DNA of 64,000 nucleotides. Origin: Acidimicrobiales bacterium. GTDB taxonomy: Bacteria > Actinomycetota > Acidimicrobiia > Acidimicrobiales > CATQHL01. The DNA lies in NCBI GenBank assembly GCA_965206165.1, contig OZ242194.1:3513881-3577880 (forward strand). Reading direction: 5' to 3'. Position numbers and translations under genes: made by a program. The stretch's first letter is position 1, and each line of letters opens with the position of its first letter. Positions 2,931 through 49,061 of this stretch are shown here, piece by piece. Under the pieces are notes generated by a model that saw only the letters and a list, made by a program, of their open reading frames with translations, did no database searches and was not told where the DNA came from.

Positions 2931-3006
2931 GGTCTCCTCCCCATCGGTTGGGTCACAGCCCGCGCCCGGCACCGCGAAGGCGACCGTGGGAGGGCGCGGA
3001 CGGAAA

Positions 3007-3033: not shown

Positions 3034-3058
3034 CGTGGCCCGAAGGCCGCCGGGCAGT

Positions 3059-3607: not shown

Positions 3608-3642
3608 GGCAACGGCAAGTACCGCCGTGGCGGCCGATTTCC

Positions 3643-4551: not shown

Positions 4552-4613
4552 GCATCGAGGTTACCAACCGCGCCCGGCGCGCCGAGGCATGGTGCAACCG
4601 GAGGTCCCCGCCG

Positions 4614-7407: not shown

Positions 7408-7494
7408 CGGATACCTCCCTCCTCGTCGCCGAACATTCCTCCGGCGGCCGGACCGGCCTGCCAAGTCGTGCGAGGGGGAGCAGAAGTTGGCTCC

Positions 7495-7545
7495 GATAGT
7501 GATCTATATATACCGAGAGAACGCCATATTTCCAAACAGTCCGGC
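7495..7545. promoter_or_regulatory. AT-rich block in the comM / small-ORF divergent intergenic region
   Basis: gatagtgatctatatataccgagagaacgccatatttccaaacag. This is the only AT-rich stretch between 7408 and 7693 and contains TATATATA. It is a candidate -10 region for either or both divergent transcripts. Confidence 0.3.
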
Positions 7546-7693
7546 CGACATGGCAGCCTGCGCAGCCGACCGGCGTTAGCAGACGTGCCCTCGGGACGAG
7601 GTCTCGGCTGCTCCGTCGTCGGGGCCGGAGAGACTCCGTAGCCTTTCCTGGGAGGCCTCAGCCCGGCGGCAGGCAGGGCACGAGAGGAGAGGC

Positions 7694-7804
7694 ATGGGGT
7701 TCGATCCCACCCGGCGATGGCGGCGGCGGCGCACCGACTACCTCTTCGTGGGACTCGGCCTGGCCGTCTGCATCCTGGCGGTCATCTGGGGGATCTGGGG
7801 ATGA
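7694..7804 (+). CDS. 36-aa single-pass membrane peptide (not in ORF track, below 60 aa)
   Basis: Own reading: ATG 7694 preceded by GAGAGGAGAGG. Translation is MGFDPTRRWRRRRTDYLFVGLGLAVCILAVIWGIWG*, a basic N-tail followed by one hydrophobic helix. 32 of 36 codons end in G/C. The stop overlaps the next ATG (ATGA at 7801-7804). Confidence 0.55.
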   Translation: MGFDPTRRWRRRRTDYLFVGLGLAVCILAVIWGIWG

Positions 7805-14022: not shown

Positions 14023-14990
14023 TACCCGACCGCCTCTCGGAGGCCATGGAGTCGGGCGGTCCGGTCCCGGCGGGCACCAAGGGCCGTCTGGAGGTCGACC
14101 TCGACGAACCGGGTCGTGATATTCGGCGCCGACTGGCCGACGTGGTCCATGTCGGCGCTGATAACGGTCCCCACCATGACGTAGCCGCCGCCGGACACGG
14201 CGTCGCGGTGCAGCACGATCGGTTCGACCCCGCCGGGGATCTGGATCGATCCGATGGGGTACGGGGCATCGACGATGTTGGAAGGATCGCTGCCTGCGCC
14301 GAACGGCGCAACACGATCACGGAAGTCGAGCACGGCCCCCCGGTAGCGGAATCCGGTCCGGTCGGCGACGGGCGTGAGACGCCACTCGGTCTCAAGGAAT
14401 GTCCGGCGGGCGGCGTCGGTGAGACGATGGTCGTAGAGGCCCATCATCACCCTGATCTCACGATGACGCGGATGCGTACTTCGCAGCTCCTCGGGAACGG
14501 ACCGGCCCGGCGCGACACCATCGTGGTGGCCGATCGGGAGCTCGTCGCCCGCCACAAGAGGTCCGCCGTGCAGTCCGCCGAGCGCCCCGAGAGCGTAGGT
14601 CGAGCGGCTGCCGAGCACCGCCGGCACGGCGAAGCCGCCGCTGACGGCGATGTAGGCCCGCGCCCCGGAGGCCAGGAAGTCGAACGACAGAACGTCACCC
14701 GCGCCGACGGCGAAACTCTCCCAGGTCGGTCGGGGCCCACCGTTGAGCCGCGGCGGAAGCTCGGCTCCGGTCACGGCCACGGTGGTCGACTGGTCGAAAC
14801 GCAGCTCGGGCCCCATGTAGGTGCATTCCAGGACGGCCGCTTCGTCGCTATTGCCGACCAGGATGTTGGCAGCCACCGACGAGTACTGGTCGAGCGACCC
14901 CGACGGGGGGATGCCCACGTTGTAGTAGCCCGGCCGGCCCGTGTCCTGGACGGTGGTGGCGATGCCGGGCACCAGGACGCTAACTCCCAT
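14022..14990 (-). CDS. KipA / PxpC family protein (allophanate hydrolase subunit 2 family, carboxyltransferase-like)
   Basis: ORF track 322 aa. MGVSVLVPGIATTVQDTGRPGYYNVGIPPSGSLDQYS...AYIAVSGGF...GDELPIG is typical of KipA/PxpC. Confidence 0.85.
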   Translation of the reverse strand: MGVSVLVPGIATTVQDTGRPGYYNVGIPPSGSLDQYSSVAANILVGNSDEAAVLECTYMGPELRFDQSTTVAVTGAELPPRLNGGPRPTWESFAVGAGDVLSFDFLASGARAYIAVSGGFAVPAVLGSRSTYALGALGGLHGGPLVAGDELPIGHHDGVAPGRSVPEELRSTHPRHREIRVMMGLYDHRLTDAARRTFLETEWRLTPVADRTGFRYRGAVLDFRDRVAPFGAGSDPSNIVDAPYPIGSIQIPGGVEPIVLHRDAVSGGGYVMVGTVISADMDHVGQSAPNITTRFVEVDLQTALGARRDRTARLHGLREAVG

Positions 14991-15873
14991 GGAGAACCTC
15001 CATCAGGCCGCGGTTGTACCCGCCGGGATCGGCCAGGAACTCGCCCAGCGAGAACTCCACGGGCGCCTGCTTGAACCGGAACCGCCTCGCGGTCACCTGG
15101 GCCGTCAACTCGTCGTAAGCCTCCCGGTCGATGGGCTCGAACTTCGCAATTGTCCCCGGTTTGAAGAACACCAGGAAGTCGTCGAAGTCGGGGTGGGTCT
15201 GGGTCGGGTCGTAGATCGGAGCCGGCGTGATGCCGAACATCTGGTACCCGCCCGCGCCGCGCACCGAGTAGATGCACCCGAAGCAGCCGCCGTGGCCGAT
15301 CGTCTGGCGCGGGGTGTCGGTCCGCGGCGTGAGGTACTTCGGGACCTCGAGTTGGCGCTCCCGCGGCACCATCTGGAACAGGAACGGCAGGCCGGCCACG
15401 AAACCGACCATCGACGTGAACCAGGGCGAGCCCGAGTGGGCGGCGATGAAGCCGTCCACCGAGTCGAATCCGTTGATCCGGGCGGCGTACTCGAGGTCGG
15501 TGCCGTCGGGGTTCTGGTGATGCGACCGGAACCGCATGAGGGTCTCGCGGGTCCAGGGGTCGTTGTAGAGGACCGGCACCTCGACAATGCTCGTCTGCAG
15601 GTCGAACCCGGTGCCGTCACCGACCTCCGCCTCGATCGATTCGAGTTCACCGAGAAGATCCAGCGGTTCGATGCGATCGGGGTCGAAGCGGACCTGATAC
15701 GAGGCGTTGGCCGGGCAGATGTCGATCACACCGTCGATACCGCGGTCGCCGAGAGTGGAGGTGATCGCCATCACCTTGAAATTTGCCTCGAGGTTCATCT
15801 CCTCGTCGAGTTCGACGTAGAGATGGTCGTCCCCGCCGAAGCTGTGCCGGGTCGTGGACCGGCCGTTTCTCAC
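14980..15873 (-). CDS. KipI / PxpB family protein (allophanate hydrolase subunit 1 family)
   Basis: Lower part of ORF 14980..16236. Start GTG 15873 lies 13 nt after the biotin carboxylase stop, with AAGGGGA in between. DDHLYVELDEEMNLEANFKV...ICPANASYQVRFDP...GCFGCIYSVRGAGGYQMFG. Confidence 0.85.
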   Translation of the reverse strand: MRNGRSTTRHSFGGDDHLYVELDEEMNLEANFKVMAITSTLGDRGIDGVIDICPANASYQVRFDPDRIEPLDLLGELESIEAEVGDGTGFDLQTSIVEVPVLYNDPWTRETLMRFRSHHQNPDGTDLEYAARINGFDSVDGFIAAHSGSPWFTSMVGFVAGLPFLFQMVPRERQLEVPKYLTPRTDTPRQTIGHGGCFGCIYSVRGAGGYQMFGITPAPIYDPTQTHPDFDDFLVFFKPGTIAKFEPIDREAYDELTAQVTARRFRFKQAPVEFSLGEFLADPGGYNRGLMEVLHGS

Positions 15874-15886
15874 CGTCTGTCCCCTT

Positions 15887-17242
15887 TCACGTTCCGAGCC
15901 AGCGCTCGACAAAGCCGGTGTCGTAACTGCCGTCGACCACTTCGGGGGTCGACAGTAGGTCGCCAATGAGCGGGGCCGTCGTCTTGATGCCGACAATCCG
16001 CAGTTCGCGCATCGCCCGGCGGGCGCGCGCCAGAGCAGCCGGCCGGTCGACATCCCAAACAATGATCTTGGCGATGAGAGAGTCGTAGAAGGGCGGTACG
16101 GCGCTGCCCGGCCGCATTGTGGTCGAGGTGCGGACCCCGGGGCCCGCCGGCAGGTCGATGTCACGGATCGTTCCCGGGCAGGGCATGAAGCCGTTGGCCG
16201 GATCCTCGGCGTTGATGCGCATCTCGATCGCCGCACCCCTCGGCTTCACATCCTCCTGAGTGAACGAGATGGGGAGGCCGCCGGCTTGGCGGAACTGCTC
16301 GCGCACCAGGTCGAGCCCGCAGATCATCTCGGTCACCGGGTGCTCCACCTGGATCCGGGTGTTCATCTCGATGAAGAAGAACTCCTCGGTGGCACTGTCG
16401 ACGAGGAACTCGACGGTCCCGGCACCCTCGTAGGCGACCGCGTCGGCGAGTGCCAGCGCGGCGGTGTGCAGGCCGGCACGAACCGCAGGGCTCAGGCTGG
16501 AGGCGAGGGCCTCCTCGATCAGCTTCTGGCGCCTGCGCTGCAGAGAACACTCGCGCTCGAACAGGTGGATCGCGCGGTCACCGTCGCCGAACACCTGCAC
16601 CTCGACGTGGCGGGCGCTGGGGATGTAGCGCTCGAGATACAGGCCGTCGTCGCCGAAGGCAGCCCGGGCCTCGTTCCGTGCGGCAGTGATACAACCAGCC
16701 AGATCGTCCGACTGTTCCACGATACGGATCCCGCGGCCGCCGCCGCCTGCGGAAGCCTTGACCAGCAGCGGGAAGCCGATCGTCGCCGCCGCCTCCGTCG
16801 CTTCCTGAACCGAGCCGATCCCACCTGCGGTGCCGGGTACGACCGGCACGCCGACCGACGCGGCCGTCTCCCGTGCCGCCGCCTTGTCGCCCATCAGCGA
16901 GATGGCCTCAGGCCGCGGTCCCACGAAGCGCAGACCCAACGCAGCGCAGCGTGCCGCGAATGCCGCGTTCTCCGACAGGAACCCGTAGCCCGGATGGATG
17001 GCGTCGCAGCCCGCCGCCAGGGCGGCACCGATGATGGCGTCCGCGTCGAGGTAGCTCCGCGACGCGGGCGGAGGGCCGATCTCGACGGCCTCGGTGGCGA
17101 GACGCACGTGACCGGCATCCCGATCGGCCTCGGAGTACACCGCGACGGTGTCGAGCCCGAGTTCCTCCGCGGCTCGGATGACCCGCATGGCGATCTCGCC
17201 GCGGTTGGCGACGAGCACCCTTTTCAAGGGACGGGGGCTCAT
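15887..17242 (-). CDS. biotin carboxylase (ATP-grasp, AccC family)
   Basis: ORF 15887..17626, start at ATG 17242 (ATGA overlap with the BCCP stop). MSPRPLKRVLVANRGEIAMRVIRAAEELG...HPGYGFLSENAAFA...EMNTRIQVEHPVTE. Confidence 0.93.
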   Translation of the reverse strand: MSPRPLKRVLVANRGEIAMRVIRAAEELGLDTVAVYSEADRDAGHVRLATEAVEIGPPPASRSYLDADAIIGAALAAGCDAIHPGYGFLSENAAFAARCAALGLRFVGPRPEAISLMGDKAAARETAASVGVPVVPGTAGGIGSVQEATEAAATIGFPLLVKASAGGGGRGIRIVEQSDDLAGCITAARNEARAAFGDDGLYLERYIPSARHVEVQVFGDGDRAIHLFERECSLQRRRQKLIEEALASSLSPAVRAGLHTAALALADAVAYEGAGTVEFLVDSATEEFFFIEMNTRIQVEHPVTEMICGLDLVREQFRQAGGLPISFTQEDVKPRGAAIEMRINAEDPANGFMPCPGTIRDIDLPAGPGVRTSTTMRPGSAVPPFYDSLIAKIIVWDVDRPAALARARRAMRELRIVGIKTTAPLIGDLLSTPEVVDGSYDTGFVERWLGT

Positions 17243-17472
17243 CGGTTGACGGTGAACAGCACCTGGCCGGCGTCGACCATCTCGGCATCGGGGACCTCGA
17301 CGGTGGCGATCGTCCCGGCCACCCCGGCCGGCACGTCGAAGAACTGCTTCATGACCTCGACGAGGGCGACCACGGTGCCGGCCTCGACCGGGCTGCCGAC
17401 ATCCACGAACGGATCGGCCCCCGGCGAGGGGCGCCGGTAGAACACACCGGGAATGGGCGACCTGATGTCCAT
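17239..17472 (-). CDS. biotin carboxyl carrier protein (single biotinyl domain, 77 aa)
   Basis: ORF 17239..17559, start at ATG 17472 with GGGAGGA upstream. MDIRSPIPGVFY...VVALVEVMKQFFDVPAGVAGTI contains the biotinyl-lysine motif (V-M-K). Confidence 0.88.
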   Translation of the reverse strand: MDIRSPIPGVFYRRPSPGADPFVDVGSPVEAGTVVALVEVMKQFFDVPAGVAGTIATVEVPDAEMVDAGQVLFTVNR

Positions 17473-17474
17473 GC

Positions 17475-17879
17475 TCACGGGTGTCCTCCCACGGTCGGAC
17501 CGTCCTCGGGCTGCGGAGGCTGCAGCGCGTAGTCCCACACCTTGGCGATGATCTGCCACCTGCCGTCCTCGCGCACGAACACCAACTCGTCGATGAACAC
17601 CTTCGGCAGGTAGGCGAGCCGGGCACGCACGTGGGCCGTGACCGGTGTCGCCGAACTCAGCGAGAGCAACTCGTCGAAACGGTCGTCCTCCCGGGCAGCG
17701 GGAGACGGCCGGCCGCCAATCAGGGCCAGGTACGCCTCCTTGTCGATGGTCAGTCCGTCCCGCCGGCAGACAAGGCGGATCTCGGGATGAAGGACCGATC
17801 CCAGCAGTTCGACGTCGCCGTGGTGGATCCCGTCGAAATAGGCGGCCATCGCCTCGGTGAGTTCGCTGATCGCGCTCAT
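17475..17879 (-). CDS. NTF2-like (SnoaL / lumazine-binding-like) protein
   Basis: ORF 17475..17954, start at ATG 17879 (ATGA overlap with the upstream stop). MSAISELTEAMAAYFDGIHHGDVELLGSVLHPE...VFVREDGRWQIIAKVW is the usual NTF2-family pattern. Confidence 0.7.
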   Translation of the reverse strand: MSAISELTEAMAAYFDGIHHGDVELLGSVLHPEIRLVCRRDGLTIDKEAYLALIGGRPSPAAREDDRFDELLSLSSATPVTAHVRARLAYLPKVFIDELVFVREDGRWQIIAKVWDYALQPPQPEDGPTVGGHP

Positions 17880-18598
17880 GAGAGGTACGGGGCGAGCGCC
17901 GCCCTGACGGCGGCGGCCAGCTCGACGGCGCCGGGAGTGTCGGAGTGGACGCACACCACGTCGGCCCGCATCGGTATCTCGGTCCCGTCGTTGGCGACCG
18001 CCACGTTCTCGGTCACCGCCCGGACAGCGCCGGCGGCCGCCTCGCCGGGATCGACAGCGACGTGCTCGCGGGTGATGATCAGGCCACCGTCGGGCCGGTA
18101 CTCCAGGTCGGTGTAGTACTCGGCGTAGAAGCCCTGGGGCCTTTCACCCCAGACCTCCTCGTGGGTGGTGTTCGCCATGCCCATGAGGGGGACGTCGAAG
18201 GCGTCGGCGGCGGCGGCGACCGCCGCGGCCACGTCGGGGTCGCGGGCCGCCTGGCCGTAGAGAGCGCCATGGGCCTTGATGTAGCCGAGTTGCATCCCTT
18301 CGGCGGCCAGAAAACCGCTGAGGGCACCGGCCTGGTAGATCACCGCGGCCGTTAGTTCCTCCGGATCCATGGCCATGGCCCGGCGGCCGAAACCCTGCAG
18401 ATCCGGATAGGAGGGGTGCGCCCCCACCGTGACCCCATGCCGCTTGGCCAGCCGCACGGTCCGCTGCATGACGCTGGGATCGGAGGCGTGGAAACCGCAC
18501 GCCACGTTGGCCATGTCGAGGTACGGCATGATGGCGTCGTCGTCGCCGCAGCGGTAGATGCCGTATGCCTCGCCCATGTCACAGTTGATTGCGACCAT
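17876..18598 (-). CDS. LamB/YcsF (PxpA) family protein
   Basis: ORF track 240 aa. MVAINCDMGEAYG...MANVACGFHASDPSVMQRTVRLAKRHGVTVGAHPSYPDLQGFGRR is a strong LamB/YcsF signature. Confidence 0.9.
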   Translation of the reverse strand: MVAINCDMGEAYGIYRCGDDDAIMPYLDMANVACGFHASDPSVMQRTVRLAKRHGVTVGAHPSYPDLQGFGRRAMAMDPEELTAAVIYQAGALSGFLAAEGMQLGYIKAHGALYGQAARDPDVAAAVAAAADAFDVPLMGMANTTHEEVWGERPQGFYAEYYTDLEYRPDGGLIITREHVAVDPGEAAAGAVRAVTENVAVANDGTEIPMRADVVCVHSDTPGAVELAAAVRAALAPYLS

Positions 18599-18616
18599 GT
18601 CGTTCCTCAGCCTTTC

Positions 18617-18952
18617 CTAGGGTCTTGCGGTCTTGGGTGAGTCGCCGCCGGGGTCGACGAAGACGTCATCGCCCCTGATCTCGGCGGGATAGTTGGCGAT
18701 CTCGGCGTGGTCGGGGTTGATGCCCCGGCAGGTCACGAGATCGAACTCCCAGAGATGCTGGCTGCAGATCAAGGTGTTCTTGTAGAGGTCACCCTCCACG
18801 AGCGCCACCCTCTGGTGGGGACAGTAGGCCTGGGTGGCGCGCACGATGCCACCGTCAAGATGCGCCACGAGCACCTCGGTGCCGTCCACCTCGAAGACCC
18901 CCATGTCGCCTTCCCACAGGTCATCGAGGCTACAGACGCGGGCGAACGCCAT
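18617..18952 (-). CDS. Rieske [2Fe-2S] ferredoxin of multicomponent monooxygenase (TmoC-like)
   Basis: ORF track 111 aa. MAFARVCSLDDLWEGDMGVFEVDGTEVLV...CPHQ...CSQHLWEF. By my recollection it is close to T4MO ferredoxin throughout. Confidence 0.9.
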   Translation of the reverse strand: MAFARVCSLDDLWEGDMGVFEVDGTEVLVAHLDGGIVRATQAYCPHQRVALVEGDLYKNTLICSQHLWEFDLVTCRGINPDHAEIANYPAEIRGDDVFVDPGGDSPKTARP

Positions 18953-18996
18953 CAGGGCGGTCCCACGGTGCTGAATCGACGTTGCTCAGCAGTCTC

Positions 18997-19992
18997 CTAG
19001 CCGTCACTGGCCGCGAGGCCGACGCTGTGGTGGAACTCACGCATCGACGCCGCCCCGGTCGCGGCGCTGCCGGGAACGTCCGGAAGCGCTCCGACGAAGG
19101 ATTCGAGAGCGGACACCCCATGCGGGGTCCAGGCGTCGAGCCACTCCAGCAGCTGCGCCCGATTCGACTCGACGCCGAGCATGTGGCCGACAAGGGCCTG
19201 CGCCCAGCGCCGCGACCGGTCACCGTCCCGCAGAGCCGCCTCGGCCATCAGCGCCAGCAGCGTGTCATCGTTGCGCCGCGCGCTCTGCGCCATCGCCCGA
19301 TGGAAGCCTTCGGAGATCGCCGGCAGCGCCACCAGGTTCAATGCGACGAAGGCCTCCGCCCAGTCGTAGGTGACCAGGGTCCGCTCCATCAGTTCCCGGT
19401 AGCCCTGCCAGGCCGAAGCGTTCTCCCACGCGGCGCGTTCGCTATCGCCGAACGACCGGTCGGGGTGCGCCTTCGCCAGCGACGCCGTCCGGTAGGCGAT
19501 CCGGGACAACCAGCGCAGTGCATCGGCGGTCTGGAAGGCCGCGCAGTTGCAGATCGTGCTGGCGGGCGCCATGTGCACGAGGTAGGCCGAGGCCATCTGG
19601 CTGGTGTGGATCAGGTACCGCCCGGGGGTGTACAGAGCCTCGAGCGCGTCGAGCCAGGCGCCGGGAAGGCTCTCGTCGTGTCCCTCGCTGTCGTACTGAT
19701 CCGCCAGCCCGTCGACATAGGACTCCTGGCCGTCCTGGAGGATGTTGTACGTGCGGTAGACCATCTCGTCGGGATCGCGGAACGAATCCCAGTCGTCGTG
19801 CGTGATCGGGCTGTTGTCGCGGTAGCGCATCACCCAGTCGTTCATGAAGCTGGCGCCCTCGACCTCGAATGGCACCTGCTCGCCCCGGGCGTGCCAGAGC
19901 AGACCGGTCGAGACGATCTCGTACTCCGACGGCCGCCGGCGCTGGCCGACCAGATGACTCCACGTTCTGAGCGGCTTGAGTACCTCAGTCAT
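18997..19992 (-). CDS. soluble diiron monooxygenase hydroxylase beta subunit (TmoE-like)
   Basis: ORF track 331 aa. N-terminus LKPLRTWSHLVGQRRRPSEYEIVS is characteristic of toluene/alkene monooxygenase beta subunits. Confidence 0.88.
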   Translation of the reverse strand: MTEVLKPLRTWSHLVGQRRRPSEYEIVSTGLLWHARGEQVPFEVEGASFMNDWVMRYRDNSPITHDDWDSFRDPDEMVYRTYNILQDGQESYVDGLADQYDSEGHDESLPGAWLDALEALYTPGRYLIHTSQMASAYLVHMAPASTICNCAAFQTADALRWLSRIAYRTASLAKAHPDRSFGDSERAAWENASAWQGYRELMERTLVTYDWAEAFVALNLVALPAISEGFHRAMAQSARRNDDTLLALMAEAALRDGDRSRRWAQALVGHMLGVESNRAQLLEWLDAWTPHGVSALESFVGALPDVPGSAATGAASMREFHHSVGLAASDG

Positions 19993-20275
19993 GGCGTTCT
20001 CCCAGGTAGAAACGAATCACTTCGGTCGAGGTGTCGATCCGGCCCGCGAAGCTGGGCATGTTCGCCTCGAGTTCGTGCAGCTTGAACGGCCGTCCCAGCT
20101 CCCGTTCGACCGAGGCACGGGTGATCACGCACTCGCCCTCGACCTGGATCCGGACGTACGAACCGCGGTCCACAACGTTGACCGCCCGCCCGGCGTTGTC
20201 CTCCTCAGCAGCCGCCACAACGGCTCGGGCAACCTCACCGCTCTGGATCACGGGACCGACGGTGCCGACGCTCAT
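19985..20275 (-). CDS. monooxygenase effector/coupling protein (MmoB/DmpM family, TmoD-like)
   Basis: ORF 19985..20278. Start is ATG 20275 or GTG 20278, both overlapping the upstream TGA, with GAGGAGG upstream. VGPVIQSGEVARAVV...DRGSYVRIQVEGECVITRASVERELGRPFKLHELEANMPSFAGRI. Confidence 0.9.
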   Translation of the reverse strand: MSVGTVGPVIQSGEVARAVVAAAEEDNAGRAVNVVDRGSYVRIQVEGECVITRASVERELGRPFKLHELEANMPSFAGRIDTSTEVIRFYLGERHD

Positions 20276-20532
20276 CACGCCTCCTCGTAGTAGAAGTCGA
20301 GTGTCTGGGTTGGCGCCAGACCGGCTTCGGCCACCGTCATGTCCAGCGGCAGCGGCTCGGTCTCGCCCGCTTTCCGGGCACGGATGACCCCGCCCTCACC
20401 GGCGACGTGCAGGCCGATCACGTTCTCCGTCGCCGCCTCGGCGACCTGGGCCATGGTGTGCTCGGTGTCGACGACGAGAAGCTTCAGCACGAAGTCCCCG
20501 TAGAAGTTCACCGAGAGTGGGAATGCTGCCAT
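20275..20532 (-). CDS. TmoB-like small (gamma) subunit of toluene/alkene monooxygenase
   Basis: ORF track 85 aa. MAAFPLSVNFYGDFVLKLLVVDTEHTMAQVAEA parallels the TmoB N-terminus as I recall it. Confidence 0.8.
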   Translation of the reverse strand: MAAFPLSVNFYGDFVLKLLVVDTEHTMAQVAEAATENVIGLHVAGEGGVIRARKAGETEPLPLDMTVAEAGLAPTQTLDFYYEEA

Positions 20533-20544
20533 CGGTCGTTCCTC

Positions 20545-22038
20545 CTATGCCGCGTCGGCACTCTCGACATAGGCGGAGACCCACTCGTAGTCGTGGGCGT
20601 CGCCGCCGCCGTCGCTGAGCACGCCGATGCCCATGTACTGGAGCACGCCGCCGAGGTCGGGCGGCTGGATCTCGCCGGCGAGCAGGCGATCAACGATCGT
20701 CTTGTGGGCGGCGTAGCGCTCCGGGTCCTGCTCGAAGATCCAGCGATCGGGCTCCGAGCCGAAGTGGTAGAGCCGCCCGTTGTACTCCAGCGGGTAGTCC
20801 TGGGTCGTCTTGAACGGCGTCCCGACGATCGGGATGTTCGACATGTTGCAGATCATCGGCAACGTGCCGGGAACGGTCCTGGCGATATCGCCCCGCTTGA
20901 GGTTCTCGATGATGACGTCCCAGCACTTGCCGAAGGTGTCGTTCCACCCCGGGTACTTCTCCTCGAGCCAGTCGCGCTCGTCGGGGCCCACACCGGCCGC
21001 CGGCGAGAACCACAGGGTGGGCCGCCACGACCACGTGCCGAGTTGCTGACCGTGGTGATGCTCGTCGATGTCGGCCAGGAACATGTCCCAGTACCAGGGC
21101 TTCGCCAAGCCCAGGTCCTCCAGGCTGTTGACGAACTGCGTGACGATCCACTCTTGCATGAACTCCTTGAACGATCCCTCCCGTTTGTCCAGGGGGATGT
21201 AGTAGTCCATCGGGATGCCCGTCAGGATCGTGAACAACTTCCACGACCGCCAGAACGCCACGTCGACGAGGCGCTGAGCCCGCTCCTTCTCGCCGTTCTC
21301 GATCAGCATCGACAGAATCGGTGTGCCGATCTGGGCGTGGCGGGCCTCGTCGGACTGGATGCTCTGGATCAGCTTGGAGAAGCTGAAGTCCCCGGCGTTG
21401 GCCGCATCCGACGAAAGGCCGATGAACTGCAGGTTGGTGAACCCGGTCTCGAACGCGAAGTTCAACAGGATGGATGTCGAGATCGCGTCGCGGGTCATCA
21501 TCATGTCGTCGAAGAAGTGACGGCCCGCGATGATGCCCCAGTTGTTGGACTTCATGCCCGAATGGGCCCAGTCGAACTGGCGATCCGTCGGTACGTACTC
21601 GTGGGGGAAGAACAACTGGAGTTGCGCGTGGCGGATCTCGTCGAGCATCCCGAACGTGCCCATGTTCCGCATGCCCGGGGACCGGGACCAACGCACGAAC
21701 CGCGACTCCATGAGGGCGGCGTTGTACTCGACGACCGATACCGCGCCGTAGTGGAGTTTCAAGGTGCTGATCCACCCTGGATCCACCTTGGAGCGCAGGT
21801 CCATGCGTTCCAGCGCCGCCTTGACCGAGTAGGCCCCGGCGTCCTTCTGGCGCTGGATGTCGACGTACTCCCGGTAGCTGATCTTGTACGGCTCGTCGTA
21901 GGTGGACCACACCTCGTCGGGAATGTCGTAGTCGCCGCTGTGCCCGGAGGGATACAACTCGTCCTCAGTGACATAGCCGGGTGTCCACTCCGTGCGCCGC
22001 GCGATGTCGTACCACTCGCTCCGCTCGAGCAAAGCCAT
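20545..22038 (-). CDS. soluble diiron monooxygenase hydroxylase alpha subunit (TmoA-like)
   Basis: ORF track 497 aa. Both diiron ligand motifs are present (FGMLDEIRHAQLQ and SIQSDEARHAQIG). N-terminus SEWYDIARRTEWTPGYVTEDELYP. AAGGAGA RBS upstream. Confidence 0.93.
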   Translation of the reverse strand: MALLERSEWYDIARRTEWTPGYVTEDELYPSGHSGDYDIPDEVWSTYDEPYKISYREYVDIQRQKDAGAYSVKAALERMDLRSKVDPGWISTLKLHYGAVSVVEYNAALMESRFVRWSRSPGMRNMGTFGMLDEIRHAQLQLFFPHEYVPTDRQFDWAHSGMKSNNWGIIAGRHFFDDMMMTRDAISTSILLNFAFETGFTNLQFIGLSSDAANAGDFSFSKLIQSIQSDEARHAQIGTPILSMLIENGEKERAQRLVDVAFWRSWKLFTILTGIPMDYYIPLDKREGSFKEFMQEWIVTQFVNSLEDLGLAKPWYWDMFLADIDEHHHGQQLGTWSWRPTLWFSPAAGVGPDERDWLEEKYPGWNDTFGKCWDVIIENLKRGDIARTVPGTLPMICNMSNIPIVGTPFKTTQDYPLEYNGRLYHFGSEPDRWIFEQDPERYAAHKTIVDRLLAGEIQPPDLGGVLQYMGIGVLSDGGGDAHDYEWVSAYVESADAA

Positions 22039-27949: not shown

Positions 27950-28089
27950 CGGTCCACCTCGATCGGATCTGTTCGCCATCCGGTCGGCTCCGGCCGGACC
28001 GGAACAGCCTACGCCTCGCGCCGCGGTGCCGGCCCGATCAGGACCATCGGCAGGGAGACGATCCGGCTGCCGGGTGCGGCGGGACCGCA

Positions 28090-28125
28090 GCCAGTCGTAA
28101 TACAATTAGTGATACTATTCGGGTC
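28090..28125 (+). promoter_or_regulatory. AT-rich promoter region of the TA operon, probably giving a leaderless transcript
   Basis: gtaatacaattagtgatactattcgggtcATG. The -10-like TACTAT at 28113-28118 ends 7 nt before the antitoxin ATG (28126), and no SD is present. No good -35 hexamer. Confidence 0.4.
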
Positions 28126-28365
28126 ATGGGTCACGCGATTTCGGTCCGGCTGGATGAGACGGCGCACCTCGCCCTGCTGCGCCTCGAATCCACCGGGATG
28201 ACTCGCTCCGAAGCGGTCCGCAGTTCTGTGGTGGCAGCGGCAGCACGCCTGACGGAATTCCAGGCCCTCGCGGCGGAAGCGGCGGCGCTCGAAGACGACG
28301 AGGAGGACCTCCGGGAGATGCGGGCAGTGGCGGAAATGATGGAGGAAGTACGTGCGCCGTGGTGA
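28126..28365 (+). CDS. ribbon-helix-helix antitoxin of type II TA pair
   Basis: ORF track 79 aa. MGHAISVRLDETAHLALLRLESTGMTRSEAVRSSV is an RHH fold pattern, followed by an acidic C-terminal tail. Overlaps the toxin gene by 14 nt. Confidence 0.8.
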   Translation: MGHAISVRLDETAHLALLRLESTGMTRSEAVRSSVVAAAARLTEFQALAAEAAALEDDEEDLREMRAVAEMMEEVRAPW

Positions 28366-28669
28366 GGTCCGCCCACTCCGTCTGCCCAAGGGCACGGACC
28401 ACGAACAGCGGGGCCGGCGATACGGCGTCGTCGTGCAGGCCGATGCACTGCTATGCCGCTCAACGGTGCTCGTGGCACCGACCTCGCGCCGCGCCAGGCC
28501 CGCCACGTTCCGCCCGGAGATCGCTGTCGAGGGCATGTCCACGCGAGTGCTCGTCGAGCAAATGGGGGCCGTCGACATGAGCCGCCTCGGAGAACCGATC
28601 GCCCAACTCACCGCCACGGAGCAGTGGGCCATCGACACGGCGTTGCTCACGGTACTGGATCTCACCTGA
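28352..28669 (+). CDS. mazF: MazF/PemK-family endoribonuclease toxin
   Basis: ORF track 105 aa. RRGEVRPLRLPKGTDHEQRGRRYGVVVQAD...VLVAPTS...VLVEQMGAVDMSRL is the typical PemK/MazF layout. Confidence 0.8.
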   Translation: MRRGEVRPLRLPKGTDHEQRGRRYGVVVQADALLCRSTVLVAPTSRRARPATFRPEIAVEGMSTRVLVEQMGAVDMSRLGEPIAQLTATEQWAIDTALLTVLDLT

Positions 28670-28822
28670 CGCACACCACGGGCGGCGCGGCGGCGAGCGG
28701 CGCCACGACATCCCAGCAATCGACGGTTCCATCGCCGCTATCGCACACGCAGACCGTCAATCATGGGGTTTCGGCCCCGGACTGGATGACGCTACACCTG
28801 TCGGTGGCAAACGCTGAGCGTT

Positions 28823-28856
28823 CCCAAGCCGGCATTTGAGCAGCAACCGGCTTGGG
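28823..28856. terminator. 10-bp perfect hairpin between convergent mazF and RCC1-like genes
   Basis: cccaagccgg-catttgagcagcaa-ccggcttggg, with exactly complementary stems. No U-tract on either side, so it would be a factor-independent terminator of the non-canonical kind, if it is one at all. Confidence 0.4.
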
Positions 28857-28937
28857 AGCGCCGCGGGTGTCGCACGGCTCCCGCCGATGACCCGACCGCC
28901 GCAGATCCCACGGCACCCCGTCGTGCGCGTCGCCCTG

Positions 28938-31397
28938 TCAATCGTCAACATTGCCCCAACATGCGATGGTGCCGTCGGTGCGTAGCCCGCACGAATGCGA
29001 CTCTCCGGCGCTGGTGGCGCTGAACTCGCCCGTCGGCGCGTCTGTCTGTCCGTCGTCGTTCGTGCCCCAGCAGGTGATGGTGTTGTCGGTGCGCAACCCG
29101 CACGAGTGACTCCCGCCGGCGGTGACGGCACCGAACTCGCCTGGCGGCGCGTCTGCCTGTCCGTCGTCGTTCGTGCCCCAGCAGGTGATGGTGTTGTCGG
29201 TGCGCAGCCCACACGAATGCGACGCGCCGGGGGCGACGGCACGGAACGCCGCGAACGGCGCTTCAGCCTTCCTGGCGTTGTTCGCGCCCCAGCAGGTGAT
29301 GACGGTGCGGTCGACGTGCAGCCCACAAGAACGATTCCAACCGACGGCGACAGCGCTGAACTGACCGGCGGGCGCGTCGGTTTGGTGGTGGGAGTTGTCG
29401 CCCCAGCAGGTAATGGTGTCGTCGGTGCGCAGCCCACACGAAGACTCGCTGCCGGCAGCAACAGCGCTGAACTCACCGTCAGGCACGTCGAGTTGCCCGT
29501 ATTGGTTATCGCCCCAACATTCGACGGTGCGGTCGGTGCGCAGCCCGCAGGCATGTCGCACACCGGCGCTGATGGCACTGAACTCCCCAGGAGGCGCCTT
29601 GACCCGCCCGAAGTCGTTGTCGCCCCAGCATGCGATGGTTCTGTCGGTACGCAACCCGCACGAATAGTGGCTGCCGGCAGTGACGGCGTCGAACCGCCCG
29701 CTCGGTGTGGCCGTGGCGCCGATTTTCGTGCTCGAAGCGGTAAGTGGTGCCCATTGGATGCCTTTCGGCGCGGCGATGGGTTGACTCCAGCATTCGATGG
29801 TGTTGTCGACGCTGACGCCGCAGGTGTGCGCCCCGCCGGCGGAGACCGCGCTGAACCGCCCCTTCGGCGCCTCGGCCTGCCCATAGTCGTTGCGGCCCCA
29901 GCATTCGACGGTGCCCTTGGTGCGTAGCCCGCACGAATGCAACGCGCCGGAGGTGATGGCGCTGAACCGCCCCTTCGGCGCCTCGGCCTGCCCGTCGTCG
30001 TTGCGGCCCCAGCATTCGACGGTGCCGTCGGTGCGCAGCCCGCACGAATGCAACGCGCCGGAGGTGATGGCGCTGAACCGCCCCTTCGGCACCTCGGCCT
30101 GCCCACCGTCGTCGTCACCGCTCCAGCATTCGACGGCACCGTCAACGCGCAACGCGCAGAGATGCACTCCGCCGGCGGCGAGAGCGCTGAACGGTCCCTC
30201 AAATTCGTCGTCGCTCCCCCACCCCCAACACGTAATGGAGCCCTCGACACGCAGTCCGCAAGAGAGCAGCCAACTGCCGATCGACACGGCGCTGAACCGT
30301 CCCTCCGGCGTGCCGCTCAACGTGATGCCGTCGAAGTTCCAGCAGGCGACGGCGCCGTCGACGCGTAGCCCACACGAATGCCTAACACCCGCCGACACCG
30401 CCGTGAACTCACCCTCCGGCACGCCGACCTGGACCGCCTCACCGTGCACCCAACACTTCACCATGCCGTCGACGCGTAGCCCACACGAATGCACAGCACC
30501 CGCCGACAGCGCTCTGAACTGACCCTCCGGCGCGCCAACCCGGCCCGCCTCACTGTTTCCCCAACACACCACCGCGCCGTCGACGCTCAACCCGCACGAA
30601 TACAAGACACCCGCCGACACCGCCGTGAACTCACCCTCTGGAGCGCCGGCCTGACCCTCCTCGTTATTCCCCCAACACAGCACCGTGGCGTCGACGCGCA
30701 CACCACACGAATGCGCACCCCCAGCCGACACCGCCGTGAACTCACCCTCCGGAGCGACGACCTGACCCCCCTCGTTGTTTCCCCAACACAGCACCGTGGC
30801 GTCGACGCGCACACCACACGAATGCGCACCCCCAGCCGACACCGCCGTGAACTCACCCTCCGGAGCGACGACCTGACCCCCCTCGTTTGCTCCCCAACAC
30901 ACCACCGCACCGTCGGTGCGCACACCACACGAATGCGAACCTCCGGCCGACACCGTGCTGAACCGCCCGTCCGGCGCGGCGGACTGTCCATAGTCATGGC
31001 TGCCCCAACACGCCACCGTGCCGTCGACGCGCAACCCACACGAATGCGCACCCCCAGCCGACACCGCAGTGAACTCACCATTCGGAGCGACGACCTGCCC
31101 GAACTCGTTGCTGCCCCAGCAGGCGATAGTGCCCTCGGCGCGCTGCCCACACGAATGGGCGTGTCCGGCAGAGACGGAGCTGAACGCACCCTCCAGAGAG
31201 TCGCTCTGTCCAAACTCGTTGTTTCCCCAACACGCCACCGTGGCGTCGACGCGCACACCACACGAGTGCTGAAAGTTCGCGGAGACGGCGCTGAACCGGC
31301 CCTCCGGCCCGTCGCCCTCCTCGCTGGTCGTGCCGCACCCGACCGCAGCCGCGACCAGCACGATCAGCAATACAACCCTCACGGCCCGCGTGACCAT
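28938..31397 (-). CDS. lipoprotein composed of ~22 tandem RCC1-like (beta-propeller blade) repeats
   Basis: ORF 28938..31406. Probable start is ATG 31397 (GGAGGG 11 nt upstream) or GTG 31406. Signal peptide plus lipobox MVTRAVRVVLLIVLVAAAVGC. The rest is 37-aa units of consensus GEFxAVSAGGxHSCGLRxDGTxxCWGxNxxGQxxAPx. Confidence 0.85.
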   Translation of the reverse strand: MVTRAVRVVLLIVLVAAAVGCGTTSEEGDGPEGRFSAVSANFQHSCGVRVDATVACWGNNEFGQSDSLEGAFSSVSAGHAHSCGQRAEGTIACWGSNEFGQVVAPNGEFTAVSAGGAHSCGLRVDGTVACWGSHDYGQSAAPDGRFSTVSAGGSHSCGVRTDGAVVCWGANEGGQVVAPEGEFTAVSAGGAHSCGVRVDATVLCWGNNEGGQVVAPEGEFTAVSAGGAHSCGVRVDATVLCWGNNEEGQAGAPEGEFTAVSAGVLYSCGLSVDGAVVCWGNSEAGRVGAPEGQFRALSAGAVHSCGLRVDGMVKCWVHGEAVQVGVPEGEFTAVSAGVRHSCGLRVDGAVACWNFDGITLSGTPEGRFSAVSIGSWLLSCGLRVEGSITCWGWGSDDEFEGPFSALAAGGVHLCALRVDGAVECWSGDDDGGQAEVPKGRFSAITSGALHSCGLRTDGTVECWGRNDDGQAEAPKGRFSAITSGALHSCGLRTKGTVECWGRNDYGQAEAPKGRFSAVSAGGAHTCGVSVDNTIECWSQPIAAPKGIQWAPLTASSTKIGATATPSGRFDAVTAGSHYSCGLRTDRTIACWGDNDFGRVKAPPGEFSAISAGVRHACGLRTDRTVECWGDNQYGQLDVPDGEFSAVAAGSESSCGLRTDDTITCWGDNSHHQTDAPAGQFSAVAVGWNRSCGLHVDRTVITCWGANNARKAEAPFAAFRAVAPGASHSCGLRTDNTITCWGTNDDGQADAPPGEFGAVTAGGSHSCGLRTDNTITCWGTNDDGQTDAPTGEFSATSAGESHSCGLRTDGTIACWGNVDD
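28950..31290. repeat. tandem 111-bp coding repeat array inside the RCC1-like gene
   Basis: Period 111 nt read directly. 30661-30771 vs 30772-30882 differ at 2 positions by my reading. 29886-29996 vs 29997-30107 differ at about 6. The blocks starting at 29050 and 29161 are also near-identical. Array limits are approximate. Confidence 0.9.
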
Positions 31398-31815
31398 CCA
31401 CCCCACCGCCCTCCGGTCCGTACACGATGCGGCAACACAACCCGGACCTTGTCCTCCGCGGACTTCGACGGCCGATGGCCCATCAACAGGCTCCTTCAGA
31501 TCAGAACCAAACCATGACCTGTCTCAGAATTCTTGTCGCGCGACAACACAACAGAACCCGCCGCCAGACTCGGACAGCGCAATCCCGACACGCGGCGACA
31601 TCGACCACCCGATGCGCCCACAACACACGCCACCCATCAACCCGACCTCCCGACACCAACAACCAACCGAACATCCAGAAGATTAGTTCTTACAAAACTA
31701 CTGATCAAATGACAATACATATACAGAAATCTAGAAAACTAGACGAACACGTACAAGGCTCCGGCGACCGTGGACTCGTCAGCTTGGACTCTGGCGATGC
31801 CCGCCGAGCCCGGCG
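31398..31815 (-). other. atypical 0.4-kb leader/intergenic region: G-poor on + strand, with an AT-rich core at 31680-31745
   Basis: Direct reading shows long runs such as cccacaacacacgccacccatcaacccgacctcccgacaccaacaaccaaccgaac. Next comes gattagttcttacaaaactactgatcaaatgacaatacatatacagaaatctagaaaactag. This is unlike any other intergenic region in the window. Confidence 0.7.
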
Positions 31816-33219
31816 TCACGACGAACGCTCGACGGCCGCTTGAACCTCAGCGAGGCGGCGTGTGCACTCCTCGGCGCTGGCGGCCTCCAGGTTGAGGCGC
31901 AGCAGCGGCTCGGTGTTGGAGGGGCGCAGGTTGAACCACCAGTCGCCGCAGTCGACCGCCAATCCGTCAAGGCGGTCCAGCGGATGGTGGCGGTAGCGCT
32001 GCGCCAGGGCCTCGGTGACCGCCCGGGGGTCGTCGACGGTGAAGTTCACCTCGCCGGAGGCGGCGTAACGGTCGTACGGGCGGCGCAGTTCGCTCAAGGG
32101 CACCCCGGCGCGGGACAGCTCCTCGAGCAGGGCCACCGCGGCGAGTACGCCCGAATCGGAGCAGTGATTCTCGGCGAAGTAGTAGTGCCCGGAGTGCTCG
32201 CCGGCGAACGCCGCTCCAGTCTCGGCCATCTGCTGCTTGATGAGCGTGTGCCCGACCCGGGTGCGCAGGCCGCGGCCGCCGCACTCGGCGATCACCTCCG
32301 GGACCATCCGCGAGCACGCCGCGTTGTACAGCACGAGCGCGCCGGGGTTGCGACGCAGCACCGCCCGCGCCAGCAGAGCCGCCACCACCGAACCCGACAG
32401 CGGGCGCGCCAGGTCGTCCACGAAGAAGACCCGATCGGCGTCCCCGTCGAACGCCAACCCCACATCGGCGCCGACCTCCCGTACGCGCCCGCACAGATCG
32501 GCCAGATTGGCCTCCTGCAGCGGATCGGGAGGATGGTTCGGGAAGCTGCCGTCCAGCTCGCCGTACAGCACATCGAGGACCGGCGGCAGCCCCTCGAAGA
32601 CGGCCGGTACGACAAGGCCGCCCATGCCGTTGGCCACGTCGGCGACCACCGACAGCGGCGCCATGCGCTCGGCATCCACGAACGACCGGACGTGACGGGC
32701 GAAGGTCTCCAGCAGGTCCACCCTGCGACGCCGCCCAGACTGCTCTGCGGCCGCCTGCAGCGAGAGCCTGAGCGCCAGATCTCGCACCCGCTGCAACCCG
32801 CGCTCGCCGCTGAGAGGGCGAGCGCCCGCGCGGCACGCCTTGATGCCGTTGTAGTCCGCGGGATTGTGCGAGGCGGTGAACACCACGCCGGGCGCGCCGA
32901 GATGGCCCGAGGCGAAGTACAGCATGTCGGTCGACGTCAGACCCAGATCCACGACATCCAGTCCCGCGGCCTGCAGGCTCGCGCAGAACCCATCGACCAG
33001 CGCCGGCCCCGACAGCCGCATGTCGCGCCCGACGATCACCTCGGTGGTGAGTGGATCGTCCTCGCGGAAGAACGCGGCGAAGGCCGCTCCAAGTCGCTGT
33101 GCCATCGGGGTGTCGAGTTCGGCGGGAACCCGGCCGCGAATGTCGTTGGCACGGATGATCACGTCGAGGCGGGCCTCCAGGGCCGGCGCGCCGCCGTGGC
33201 CGCCCGCGCGCTCAGTCAT
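31816..33219 (-). CDS. manB: phosphomannomutase/phosphoglucomutase
   Basis: ORF 31816..33303, start probably ATG 33219 (8-nt overlap with the upstream stop). Active-site loop VVFTASHNPADYNG and metal loop LAFDGDADRVFFVD. Confidence 0.92.
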   Translation of the reverse strand: MTERAGGHGGAPALEARLDVIIRANDIRGRVPAELDTPMAQRLGAAFAAFFREDDPLTTEVIVGRDMRLSGPALVDGFCASLQAAGLDVVDLGLTSTDMLYFASGHLGAPGVVFTASHNPADYNGIKACRAGARPLSGERGLQRVRDLALRLSLQAAAEQSGRRRRVDLLETFARHVRSFVDAERMAPLSVVADVANGMGGLVVPAVFEGLPPVLDVLYGELDGSFPNHPPDPLQEANLADLCGRVREVGADVGLAFDGDADRVFFVDDLARPLSGSVVAALLARAVLRRNPGALVLYNAACSRMVPEVIAECGGRGLRTRVGHTLIKQQMAETGAAFAGEHSGHYYFAENHCSDSGVLAAVALLEELSRAGVPLSELRRPYDRYAASGEVNFTVDDPRAVTEALAQRYRHHPLDRLDGLAVDCGDWWFNLRPSNTEPLLRLNLEAASAEECTRRLAEVQAAVERSS

Positions 33220-36774: not shown

Positions 36775-37539
36775 TCAGCGCAACAACTGCACGACCGTGA
36801 AGCTGTTGAAGGCGGCATGTGCCCACATGGCCGGGGCGAGACGCTTCGTCGACACCACCAGGACACCGGCCACCAGCCCGAAGGCCACCAGCGCGGGAAG
36901 CTGGAGAAGCTGCACATGCGCCAGACCGAACAGCACGGCCGACACCACGACTGTGGCGGTGCGCCCCATCCGACCCCAGAGCGCCCTGAGCAGTAGGCCG
37001 CGGAAGAACAACTCCTCGACGAAGGGTGCCACCAGCACGACCCCCACCACCACGACCGCCACGCCTCCCGCACCGTCGGCGAGCGTCATGATCCGCCGGG
37101 CCGGCTCCTCCACGTCCTCGGCGTCGATGAACCGCGCCAGCGGCAGGTAGATCGCCGGTATGAGCAGGAGTTGCGCCACCAGGCCGCTCCCCAGCCCGAC
37201 AAGAGCGTCGTACCAGCGCTGCGTCAAGCCCAGGGCGCTCCGCAGCTTGACGCCATGGCGGCGGACGACGGCCCAGGTGACGACGGCCAGAGTCAACCAG
37301 AGCGGCAGTTGCAGCACCGTGAACTGCCAGTATGCGAGATTGAAGAGATCCGGCTCGGCGCCCCGGGCTGCCTGAACCCCGGCGCGAGCCGCCGCCGACC
37401 CCATTCCTGAGGGCGAATCCCACATCGCCATCAGCACCACCTGCACGACGACGGTGATCAACGCCGCCGCGATCCAGCCGGCGATCGCAGCCGACACGGA
37501 CCACGGGGGAGCGGGCCGCAGGCGGCCTCTCTGCGACAT
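36775..37539 (-). CDS. CPBP-family intramembrane glutamic endopeptidase (CAAX protease-like)
   Basis: ORF 36775..37602. Motifs APFVEELFFRG, AVLFGLAHV, WAHAAFNSF. The start is uncertain (ATG 37539 or TTG 37602). Confidence 0.8.
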   Translation of the reverse strand: MSQRGRLRPAPPWSVSAAIAGWIAAALITVVVQVVLMAMWDSPSGMGSAAARAGVQAARGAEPDLFNLAYWQFTVLQLPLWLTLAVVTWAVVRRHGVKLRSALGLTQRWYDALVGLGSGLVAQLLLIPAIYLPLARFIDAEDVEEPARRIMTLADGAGGVAVVVVGVVLVAPFVEELFFRGLLLRALWGRMGRTATVVVSAVLFGLAHVQLLQLPALVAFGLVAGVLVVSTKRLAPAMWAHAAFNSFTVVQLLR

Positions 37540-37687
37540 CAGCGGCCCGCGGCCGTACGCAGACAACAACCGGCCACGGGCACCGATCCTACTCCTGCCC
37601 AACCCGGGGCCTGGTTAGTCGCGCAGCACCCCGGATGGCTCTCCGGGGCTCGGCACGATCACCGGAACGGTGCGCCGGACTCCTAGC

Positions 37688-39644
37688 ATGAACTCATGGC
37701 GCAATCGCCACCACCTTCGCAACCACCGGCGGGGTCCGACGGCTCGGGGGACGCGCCCCGCCCACCAACAGGTCCCCACTGGACGCGGCTGGCTGGCATG
37801 GATCGCGCTGCTCGTCATCCTCGGCACCCTGATCCTGCCCTGGCATTTTTTCCGACGAGCAGAGCGTGCCGATCACGTACAGCCAGTTCCTGGACGAGGT
37901 GGCGGCCGGGACCGTGGTCTCGGTGGCGATCAACAACCACAACGGCGACATCAGCGGCGAGTTGGCCGACGGTGAGACGTTCCTCACCACCGGCCCCAGG
38001 GAACTGCCCCCGGAGGACTACGCCCTGATCCGCGACAACCTCGGCGCCAACGTGGAGTTCGAGACACCGACCTCCAGCATCTGGGCGTCGCTGCTGCCCC
38101 TGCTGCTGCCGGTGGGCCTGCTGATCCTGTTCTTCTGGTGGATGCAGCGGCGCACCCAGGGGCAGATGGGCGGGATCATGTCCATCGGCCGCTCCCGGGC
38201 CAAGACCTACTCCACGGAACGTCCGGCCACGACGTTCGAGGACGTGGCCGGCTACGAAGGTGTCAAGCAGGAAATCACCGAGGTCGTGGACTTCCTGCGC
38301 GAGCCCGAGAAGTTCGCCCGCATCGGCGCCCGCATCCCCAAGGGGATCCTGCTGGTCGGCCCCCCGGGGACCGGGAAGACGCTCATCGCCCGAGCCGTCG
38401 CCGGCGAGGCGGAGGTGCCGTTCCTGTCGGTCACCGGTTCGGACTTCATGGAGATGTTCGTGGGTGTCGGCGCCAGCCGGGTGCGCGACCTGTTCAGCAA
38501 TGCCCGCAAGATGGGGCGGGCCATCATCTTCATCGACGAGATCGACTCCATCGGCCGCAAGCGGGGTGCCGGCCTCGGCGGCGGCCATGACGAGCGTGAG
38601 CAGACCCTCAACCAGATGCTCTCGGAGATGGACGGGTTCGAAGCCACCGAGGGGATCGTGATGATGGCCGCCACCAACCGCCCGGACATCCTCGACTCGG
38701 CGCTGCTGCGCCCGGGCCGGTTCGACCGGCAGGTGGTGGTTCCCCTGCCCGAACTCGAGGACCGGGTGCGGATCCTCGAGGTGCACGTGAAGGGCAAGCG
38801 GCTGGAGGAGGACCTGGATCTGTCGCTCATCGCCCGCGGGACGCCCGGCATGAGCGGCGCCGACCTGTCCAACGTCGTCAACGAGGCCGCTCTGGCGGCA
38901 GTGCGCGCCGGCGACGAGACCATCGCGATGGTTCACTTCGAGCAGGCGCGCGATCGGGTGCTCATCGGCCAGAAGCGCGAGTCGCTCGGCCTCTCGGAGG
39001 ACGAGAAGACCGCCGTGGCGTATCACGAGGCGGGTCACGCCGTGTGCGCCGCGACGCTGCCCAACGCCGACCCGCTGCACAAGGTGACCGTCATACCCAG
39101 CGGCATGGCGCTCGGCGTGACCATGCAGCTCCCCGAGCAGGAGCGGCACATCTACCGCCAAGACTACATCGAGGACACCCTCGTCGTGCGCATGGGTGGG
39201 CGCATCGCCGAGGAACTGGTCTTCGGCGTGATCTCGACCGGAGCCAACGACGACCTCGTGGGGGCCACGCAACTGGCCCGCAAGATGGTCCGCGAATGGG
39301 GCATGAGCGACCGGCTGGGTCCCATGGCGTGGGGAGCGCACGGCGAGGTCTTCCTGGGAGACGAACTCGTCAGCACACGCGAGTACAGCGACGAGACGGC
39401 ACACCTCATCGACGAGGAGGTGGAGCGGATCCTGCGCAACCAGGAGGGGCGTTGCCGGATCCTGCTGACGGAGCACCGTGACGCTCTCGACCTCGTCGCG
39501 CAGGCACTGCTCGACCACGAGACGATCCCCGGCAGCGAGGTGGAGCGACTCGTGGAGGCGGCAAGGACCAACGGCTCGGTGGGGATGGCCACCCGGGGCG
39601 CCGTGGTATCGGCCGCCTCGAGCCTGGGCAAGTCCGCCGTCTGA
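37688..39644 (+). CDS. ftsH: ATP-dependent zinc metalloprotease FtsH, with the reading frame interrupted after TM1 (apparent +1 shift at T6 run 37846-37851)
   Basis: Main ORF 37866..39644 carries Walker A GPPGTGKT, Walker B IIFIDEID and the zinc site HEAGH. The first TM helix ([21 protein letters not shown]) lies only in the frame of ORF 37670..37975. The N-terminal start is uncertain (ATG 37688 or GTG 37670). Confidence 0.88.
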
Positions 39645-40178: not shown

Positions 40179-40210
40179 GACGAAGCGGGTGGTCGGCAGG
40201 GAAATTCGGC

Positions 40211-40258
40211 GATCTCCCGCAGGCCGACGGCTCGGGATCTCCCGCAGGCCGACGGCTC
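40211..40258. repeat. tandem direct duplication of a 23-nt unit (25-nt period)
   Basis: gatctcccgcaggccgacggctc occurs at 40211-40233 and again at 40236-40258. The second copy runs into the stop codon (40257-40259) of the reductase gene. Confidence 0.85.
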
Positions 40259-49051: not shown

Positions 49052-49061
49052 AGGGGAGGTG

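Follow-up and report, generated by a model that had tools for sequence, protein, structure and literature searches.

In the ftsH gene of the DNA analysed here, a 64,000-nucleotide stretch from an Acidimicrobiales bacterium (the window; 69 % G+C), we have identified two extra bases, a G at 37787/37788 and a T at 37841, that lie 54 nt apart with the 17 codons of the first transmembrane helix (TM1) between them and that are missing from all 13 close relatives compared. The ftsH ORF of the window is thereby split over three reading frames, and gene callers consequently retain only a 592-aa body beginning at a GTG codon (37866). Our data suggest that each of the two is probably an erroneous one-base insertion made in a long-read consensus, and that the locus is very probably a normal 648-codon gene for a two-TM FtsH; whether artefact or real lesion, the phenomenon is an ordinary one. 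The window itself presumably derives from a long-read metagenome-assembled genome (MAG), given that its source is a single 3.67-Mb contig.

An earlier reading made from the letters of the window alone (the sequence-only reading) had described much of this arrangement correctly. The frame of the FtsH body is indeed closed upstream by an in-frame TGA at 37830–37832, as is seen directly in the sequence, and its first start codon is GTG 37866, from which a 592-aa ORF (37866..39644) extends. TM1 is encoded, as its translation confirms, by an adjacent-frame ORF (37670..37975); a third-frame ORF starting at ATG 37696 runs to 38028; and there is a run of six T residues (T6) at 37846–37851, removal of one T from which yields an open fusion of TM1 to the body. 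A run of four C residues that had been placed at 37779–37782 and proposed as the site of a second indel is actually situated at 37774–37777 and contains no indel. Between R31 and W32, insertion 1 moves the frame by +1, and insertion 2 adds another +1 (Table 1), so that, as written, the window has no ORF that carries two TM helices together with the catalytic body, TM1 being in another frame; deletion of G37787/8 and T37841 places all three in a single ORF. The TM1 segment has a Kyte–Doolittle 17-residue maximum of 2.46 and aligns to TM1 of Escherichia coli FtsH (PDB 7vhp) from residue 6.

Table 1. Features of the ftsH locus in the window (all coordinates are positions in the window)
Feature	Position	Strand	Evidence or remark
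ftsH codons 1–31, cytoplasmic Pro-rich N-terminal tail, MAQSPPPS...GPHWTR	37696..37788	+	Frame of ATG 37696; 100 % identical to residues 1–31 of P0003/P0005
Insertion 1, GG versus single G in relatives, ACGCG[G]CTGG	37787..37788	+	Private to the window; without it, 13/13 relatives
ftsH codons 32–48, first transmembrane helix	37790..37840	+	Frame of ORF 37670..37975; DNA identical to L007–L009
TGA	37830..37832	+	Out of frame inside TM1 codons (CTG ATC); without function
Insertion 2, extra T between CCC (P48) and GGC (G49)	37841..37841	+	Private to the window; without it, 13/13 relatives
ftsH codons 49–648 and stop	37842..39644	+	Pfam domains, TIGR01241, PDB FtsH matches, motif coordinates
Periplasmic FtsH_ext domain	within 37842..39644	+	Pfam
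T6 run, native codons ATT TTT TCC (I50-F51-S52)	37846..37851	+	Same T6 in intact L003–L011
GTG (V57), first start codon of the 592-aa ORF call P0012	37866..37868	+	
TM2	38079–38141	+	
AAA+ module, Walker A	38358–38381	+	Motif coordinates
AAA+ module, pore loop	38454–38465	+	Motif coordinates
AAA+ module, Walker B	38523–38546	+	Motif coordinates
AAA+ module, SRH	38673–38729	+	Motif coordinates
M41 protease, HEAGH	39024–39038	+	Motif coordinates

The interpretation of a GC3 frame plot in which the frame of ORF 37670 is coding back to about 37690, with no second indel, was considered and is ruled out by the homologues. Over 37696–37788 GC3 favours the wrong frame because the CCA codons of the Pro-rich tail lower GC3 in the true frame, and the first frameshift would have stayed hidden in that interval had GC3 alone been used. 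A scan of 37300–38000 for promoters and terminators found none; it might be speculated that the sequence TAGCAT at 37684–37689, ahead of ATG 37696, serves a leaderless mRNA.

The positions of both lesions were established by comparison with close relatives. A protein search, for which the query was a provisional repair (start at ATG 37688 and deletion of one T from T6) that was later discarded, recovered the exact 592-aa product (P0012, on one 3.67-Mb contig) together with a dozen 648-aa proteins of 93–96 % identity. Thirteen syntenic loci (L001–L011, L093 and L099) drawn from seven or more independent assemblies, comprising Illumina SPAdes, SPIRE scaffolds and metaMDBG HiFi, were then compared with the window; their ftsH genes share 97.6–99.0 % nucleotide identity with that of the window and each encodes one uninterrupted 648-aa FtsH. 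This continuous ORF bears out the original suspicion that ftsH had been severed from TM1 by a change of frame. The N-terminus of the relatives' proteins consists of three blocks; in the window these are found in turn in the frame of ATG 37696, in that of ORF 37670 and in that of the body, and three blocks matched in three frames imply two frame changes. DNA alignments and the corresponding gap listings place these at the extra G (CGC→CG[G]C) and at the extra T (CCC[T]GGC), and every base of the stretch between the two is the same as in L007–L009. The proposal that a second indel connects the third frame, as the source of the extreme N-terminus, to the rest was thus right in its substance, since residues 1–31 are 100 % identical to those of a relative's protein (P0003), and wrong only in assigning the indel to the run of four C residues.

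The T6 run was not so fortunate as a candidate. The sequence-only reading had located the frame change at this homopolymer, with WHF-SDEQ as the repaired junction and the expectation that reads would show T5, and the open fusion obtained on removing one T agrees with such a single one-base error (true T5) parting TM1 from the body. L003–L011, whose genes are intact, nevertheless have the same T6, Illumina-based contigs and HiFi relatives among them (L001 and L002 have ATG TTT TCC), and a run kept in intact relatives is native and not a lesion. Moreover, the fusion would place W-H-F at a site occupied in 59 of 60 homologues by P followed by G/S/N and next by I/M/L, the native junction in the relatives being LILP-GIF, and it would leave residues 1–31 unexplained. 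We therefore attach almost no probability to an error in T6; the sequence to be expected in reads has T6 and has neither G37787/8 nor T37841.

When the two bases are deleted, the locus encodes a 648-aa protein with no further lesion that is 98.3–98.6 % identical to the relatives' proteins P0001–P0005 (9–12 differences). This repaired protein scores 774.5 bits against TIGR01241 (FtsH_fam, an equivalog model with a cutoff of 600), covering profile positions 6–597 of 598, and its Pfam domains occur in the order FtsH_ext (PF06480), AAA (PF00004), AAA_lid_3 (PF17862) and Peptidase_M41 (PF01434). All catalytic motifs are intact and the same as in the relatives, namely Walker A (GPPGTGKT), Walker B (DEID), the SRH, the FVG pore loop and the HEXXH zinc site (HEAGH). 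The protein aligns with full-length E. coli FtsH (7vhp) from residue 6 to residue 604, TM1 included, and has the same architecture as bacterial FtsH generally (TIGR01241; E. coli PDB 7vhp/7wi3; Mycobacterium tuberculosis FtsH), i.e. a short cytoplasmic tail, TM1, the FtsH_ext periplasmic domain, TM2, the AAA+ module and the M41 Zn protease. It differs in that codons 1–48 of the window as written are not in the frame of the body and, from E. coli FtsH in particular, in that the N-terminal tail is longer, at 31 residues, and Pro-rich. The pristine state of the repaired gene body, with all its motifs kept, argues for an artefact and against a genuine mutation. It is also unlikely that two real frameshifts would arise independently within 54 nt of each other in a 1.9-kb gene that is otherwise free of lesions.

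The alternative that must be weighed most carefully is that both insertions are real and recent, so that the gene is either a young ftsH pseudogene or is restarted at GTG 37866 (or GTG 37899) to give an N-terminally truncated FtsH. We regard this as possible, but as less probable than not. The product of such a restart would have a single TM helix (TM2), and its acidic periplasmic domain of about 70 residues would have to be translocated as an N-tail. One argument in its favour, which also counts against an artefact, is the cleanness of the rest of the window. The comparison covered about 50.4 kb for which one or more close relatives were available and 37.7 kb for which there were three or more, and in the approximately 50 kb compared the two ftsH insertions are the only uncompensated window-private single-base coding indels; over 12.7 kb one relative (L098) is 99.5 % identical with zero gaps. 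Two random errors within 54 nt are not easily obtained against such a background. Nor are the insertions typical of HiFi or ONT errors, as neither lengthens a run that is three or more bases long and the T is not associated with a homopolymer. A GC3 and ORF survey of the whole window detected no other split gene. Phase changes at 2013–4753 and at 17239–18616 were considered as candidates and proved to reflect separate genes (rpsB, an M23 peptidase gene and xerC in the former region; BCCP, lumazine-binding-like and LamB genes in the latter). The only other private homopolymer-length difference seen is at position 49053, just past the stop codon of the F420-ligase gene, where the window has G4 and most relatives have G5.

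Substitutions private to the window bear on the same question. Over the whole window there are 170 synonymous and 93 nonsynonymous private substitutions, a ratio that indicates genuine strain variation and not noise. In ftsH the nonsynonymous to synonymous ratio is 5 : 1, compared with 88 : 169 in the other genes (P=0.022), the five replacements being E57V, N81H, R569H, G576E and Q577R (37867, 37938, 39403, 39424 and 39427). The first of these, an A→T change at 37867 that converts GAG to GTG, alters a nearly invariant residue (E in 58 of 60 homologues) and is the reason that GTG 37866 exists as a first start, 25 nt past the second insertion. Both this new start codon and the nonsynonymous excess count in favour of a genuine lesion, and the excess, E57V included, also speaks against an artefact. 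However, the E and R at 576 and 577 are ancestral states common to more distant relatives, so that the ratio counting derived changes only falls to 3 : 1, which is not significant (P=0.12); H81 and H569 are found in other functional homologues; and no convincing Shine–Dalgarno sequence precedes GTG 37866. Private SNPs at 37602, 37671, 37867, 37938 and 37962 make up a 360-nt patch that encloses both insertions, and similar patches occur elsewhere in the window.

A wider survey of ftsH copies from other assemblies favours the consensus error. Among 94 copies, whose platforms were classified manually on the basis of contig names and record titles, 5 of the 30 long-read-derived and none of the 64 short-read-derived ones have frameshift-type defects (Fisher P=0.0026), the defects following platform and not phylogeny. 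The five defective copies are those of the window, L093, L013, L048 and L080. The L093 copy is on a minor metaMDBG contig (ctg68013) which, when compared with its 99.8 % identical twin L005, has four one-base indels in 10 kb (positions 1057, 1487, 2612 and 4026), or about one per 2.5 kb; two of these disrupt ftsH (protein P0064), and one of the four is the same type of error as insertion 1 (AGC[G]GC, G1→G2). L013 is a complete HiFi MAG (OZ220687.1) in which a +1 change at about 3254 (ATCAACA[C]AAC) and a −1 change at about 3364 (GGGTTC[-]GGCG), separated by 110 nt and both within the FtsH periplasmic domain, turn some 37 conserved residues into basic junk before the frame is restored (P0055). 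In L048 (about 2990–3015) and L080 (about 2975–3000), both Microflora Danica Nanopore MAGs, TM1 is out of frame with the body, the break being just after TM1, in the region of the window's second insertion. A further protein (P0054; 598 aa, start MPGLF) that appeared to be a second FtsH lacking TM1 is a start-codon miscall in L092, a 2.39-Mb contig, whose ORF at 5864–7797 is intact with tail and TM1.

Eight of the nine frame-breaking ftsH indels seen across assemblies fall in the first 120 or so codons. This is the distribution expected if only N-terminal lesions are tolerated, and FtsH is known to be dispensable in several bacteria and to exist in single-TM forms, namely i-AAA and mature thylakoid FtsH (PMC9020784), both of which lend the genuine-mutation interpretation some support. 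One could go further and suppose that the strain lives with a truncated, single-TM FtsH restarted at the GTG made by E57V, N-terminal frameshifts being recurrently tolerated in the clade (the window, L048, L080 and L013), an extension that we think distinctly improbable. The product from GTG 37866 would resemble mitochondrial i-AAA YME1 and mature thylakoid FtsH in having a single TM helix ahead of its AAA+ and M41 domains. These, however, evolved or are processed to a single-TM topology, whereas here it would arise from a putative lesion and the N-terminal domain would be without a targeting helix. The absence of any such lesion from the 64 short-read-derived copies, the intact motifs and the finding that the 592-aa product and both upstream ORFs are on no independent contig all argue against a real mutation. 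Flexible DNA patterns for either allele gave no hits in GTDB representative genomes or JGI metagenomes, where the clade is too divergent or absent.

Our current working hypothesis is that a local consensus error arose in a long-read metagenome assembly, probably where the reads of co-occurring strains differ. Each inserted base adjoins the third position of a codon at which that position is four-fold degenerate (CGC→CG[G]C and CCC→CCC[T]), and both alleles of a synonymous strain SNP may have been kept side by side in the consensus. Under this model the alternative alleles would be CGC/CGG (R31) and CCC/CCT (P48); the true sequence would read ACGCGCTGG or ACGCGGTGG at site 1 and CCCGGC or CCTGGC at site 2, with T6 kept, and the organism would make a normal FtsH. 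Retention of SNP alleles would also account for the crowding of defects into the variable 5′ part of the gene. In long-read metagenome assemblies, indels that shorten predicted proteins are ‘in general’ errors (PMC13087279), and the present case shares with those detected by IDEEL-type tests (PMC13087279) single-base indels that shorten a protein relative to its homologues; it differs from them in that the sites are not long homopolymers and in that two errors fall within 54 nt of an otherwise clean 50 kb. An assembly error, which the sequence-only reading also considered the likeliest cause, is therefore still favoured, though not by way of T6.

Programmed +1 frameshifting had been raised as an alternative and would here require +1 shifts after CGG 37786–37788 and after CCC 37838–37840; in a variant of the idea, TM1 would be made as a separate peptide from the ORF starting at 37670 or 37688, i.e. 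from a split gene. The context CCC-U is in principle +1-prone when in the P site, and the TM1-encoding ORF does have an ATG, at 37688. Re-pairing of CCC to CCU is accordingly possible at site 2, but the A-site codon there is UGG, and at site 1 tRNA re-pairing from CGG to GGC is impossible. Inspection of the sequence revealed no in-frame stop, hungry codon or upstream SD-like stimulator at either insertion site. The system shares with prfB/RF2 the need for a +1 change to obtain the full-length protein, but has no slippery site of the CUU-U type with an in-frame stop and no upstream SD, is not conserved and would need two shifts; two consecutive +1 events would give a tiny yield for a housekeeping protease. 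TM1 is in frame, within one continuous ORF, in 13 of 13 close relatives and in 79 of 81 more distant Acidimicrobiia ftsH loci, the two exceptions being Nanopore MAGs, and the products of the frame-1 and frame-2 ORFs have no family match and occur in no other assembly. Recoding is thus very improbable, and both programmed +1 frameshifting and a split gene are effectively excluded.

The nearest GTDB representatives of the window are Acidimicrobiales MAGs (IRC4_bin_37 at 90 % and OZ220687.1 at 84 %), followed by Candidatus Poriferisocius MAGs at about 70 %, and the record titles of the relatives suggest a sponge-associated lineage. Synteny is conserved in the order 931-aa membrane protein, CPBP protease (divergent), ftsH, 145-aa gene and Oxidored_FMN. 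The context of ftsH in Actinomycetes is tilS-hpt-ftsH; here, the divergent CPBP protease gene is upstream and the 145-aa gene downstream. The intergenic region between the 145-aa gene and Oxidored_FMN (40196–40253) is hypervariable among strains and alignments break there. Several other regions of the window merit description. Positions 28030–31844 form a strain-variable island, which in the window carries an ORF of low GC3 on the minus strand (28938–31523), in L004 and L005 a giant cadherin/Big_9/HemolysinCabind gene, and in L001 and L002 other small genes. At 8906 and 9494, three relatives (L094, L096 and L097) differ by an 8-nt tandem duplication (GCGCCGGT) and by being one G shorter at 8906; in their gene calls bioD (AAA_26) is lost and a 396-aa thioesterase-like protein appears instead, while the window and L095 have bioD and a 265-aa protein. 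A multicomponent phenol/toluene-type monooxygenase cluster (Phenol_Hydrox, TmoB, MmoB and Rieske) at 14022–22038 is conserved in the relatives and adjoins LamB/YcsF, CT_C_D, CT_A_B, biotin carboxylase and BCCP genes.

The main value of these observations lies in annotation quality. The deposited 592-aa ‘FtsH’ (P0012) is a shortened call for what is, very probably, a two-TM protease of 648 aa. This example also illustrates that a frameshift assigned to a homopolymer by eye can be misplaced, as T6 is native and the lesions are 5 and 59 nt upstream of it. In long-read MAGs of this clade the variable 5′ part of ftsH is repeatedly affected by indels, and caution is needed before pseudogenisation or genome reduction in symbionts is inferred from such long-read assemblies. 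Should the two insertions be real, which we judge unlikely, the strain would represent a natural test of the need of FtsH for its first transmembrane helix.
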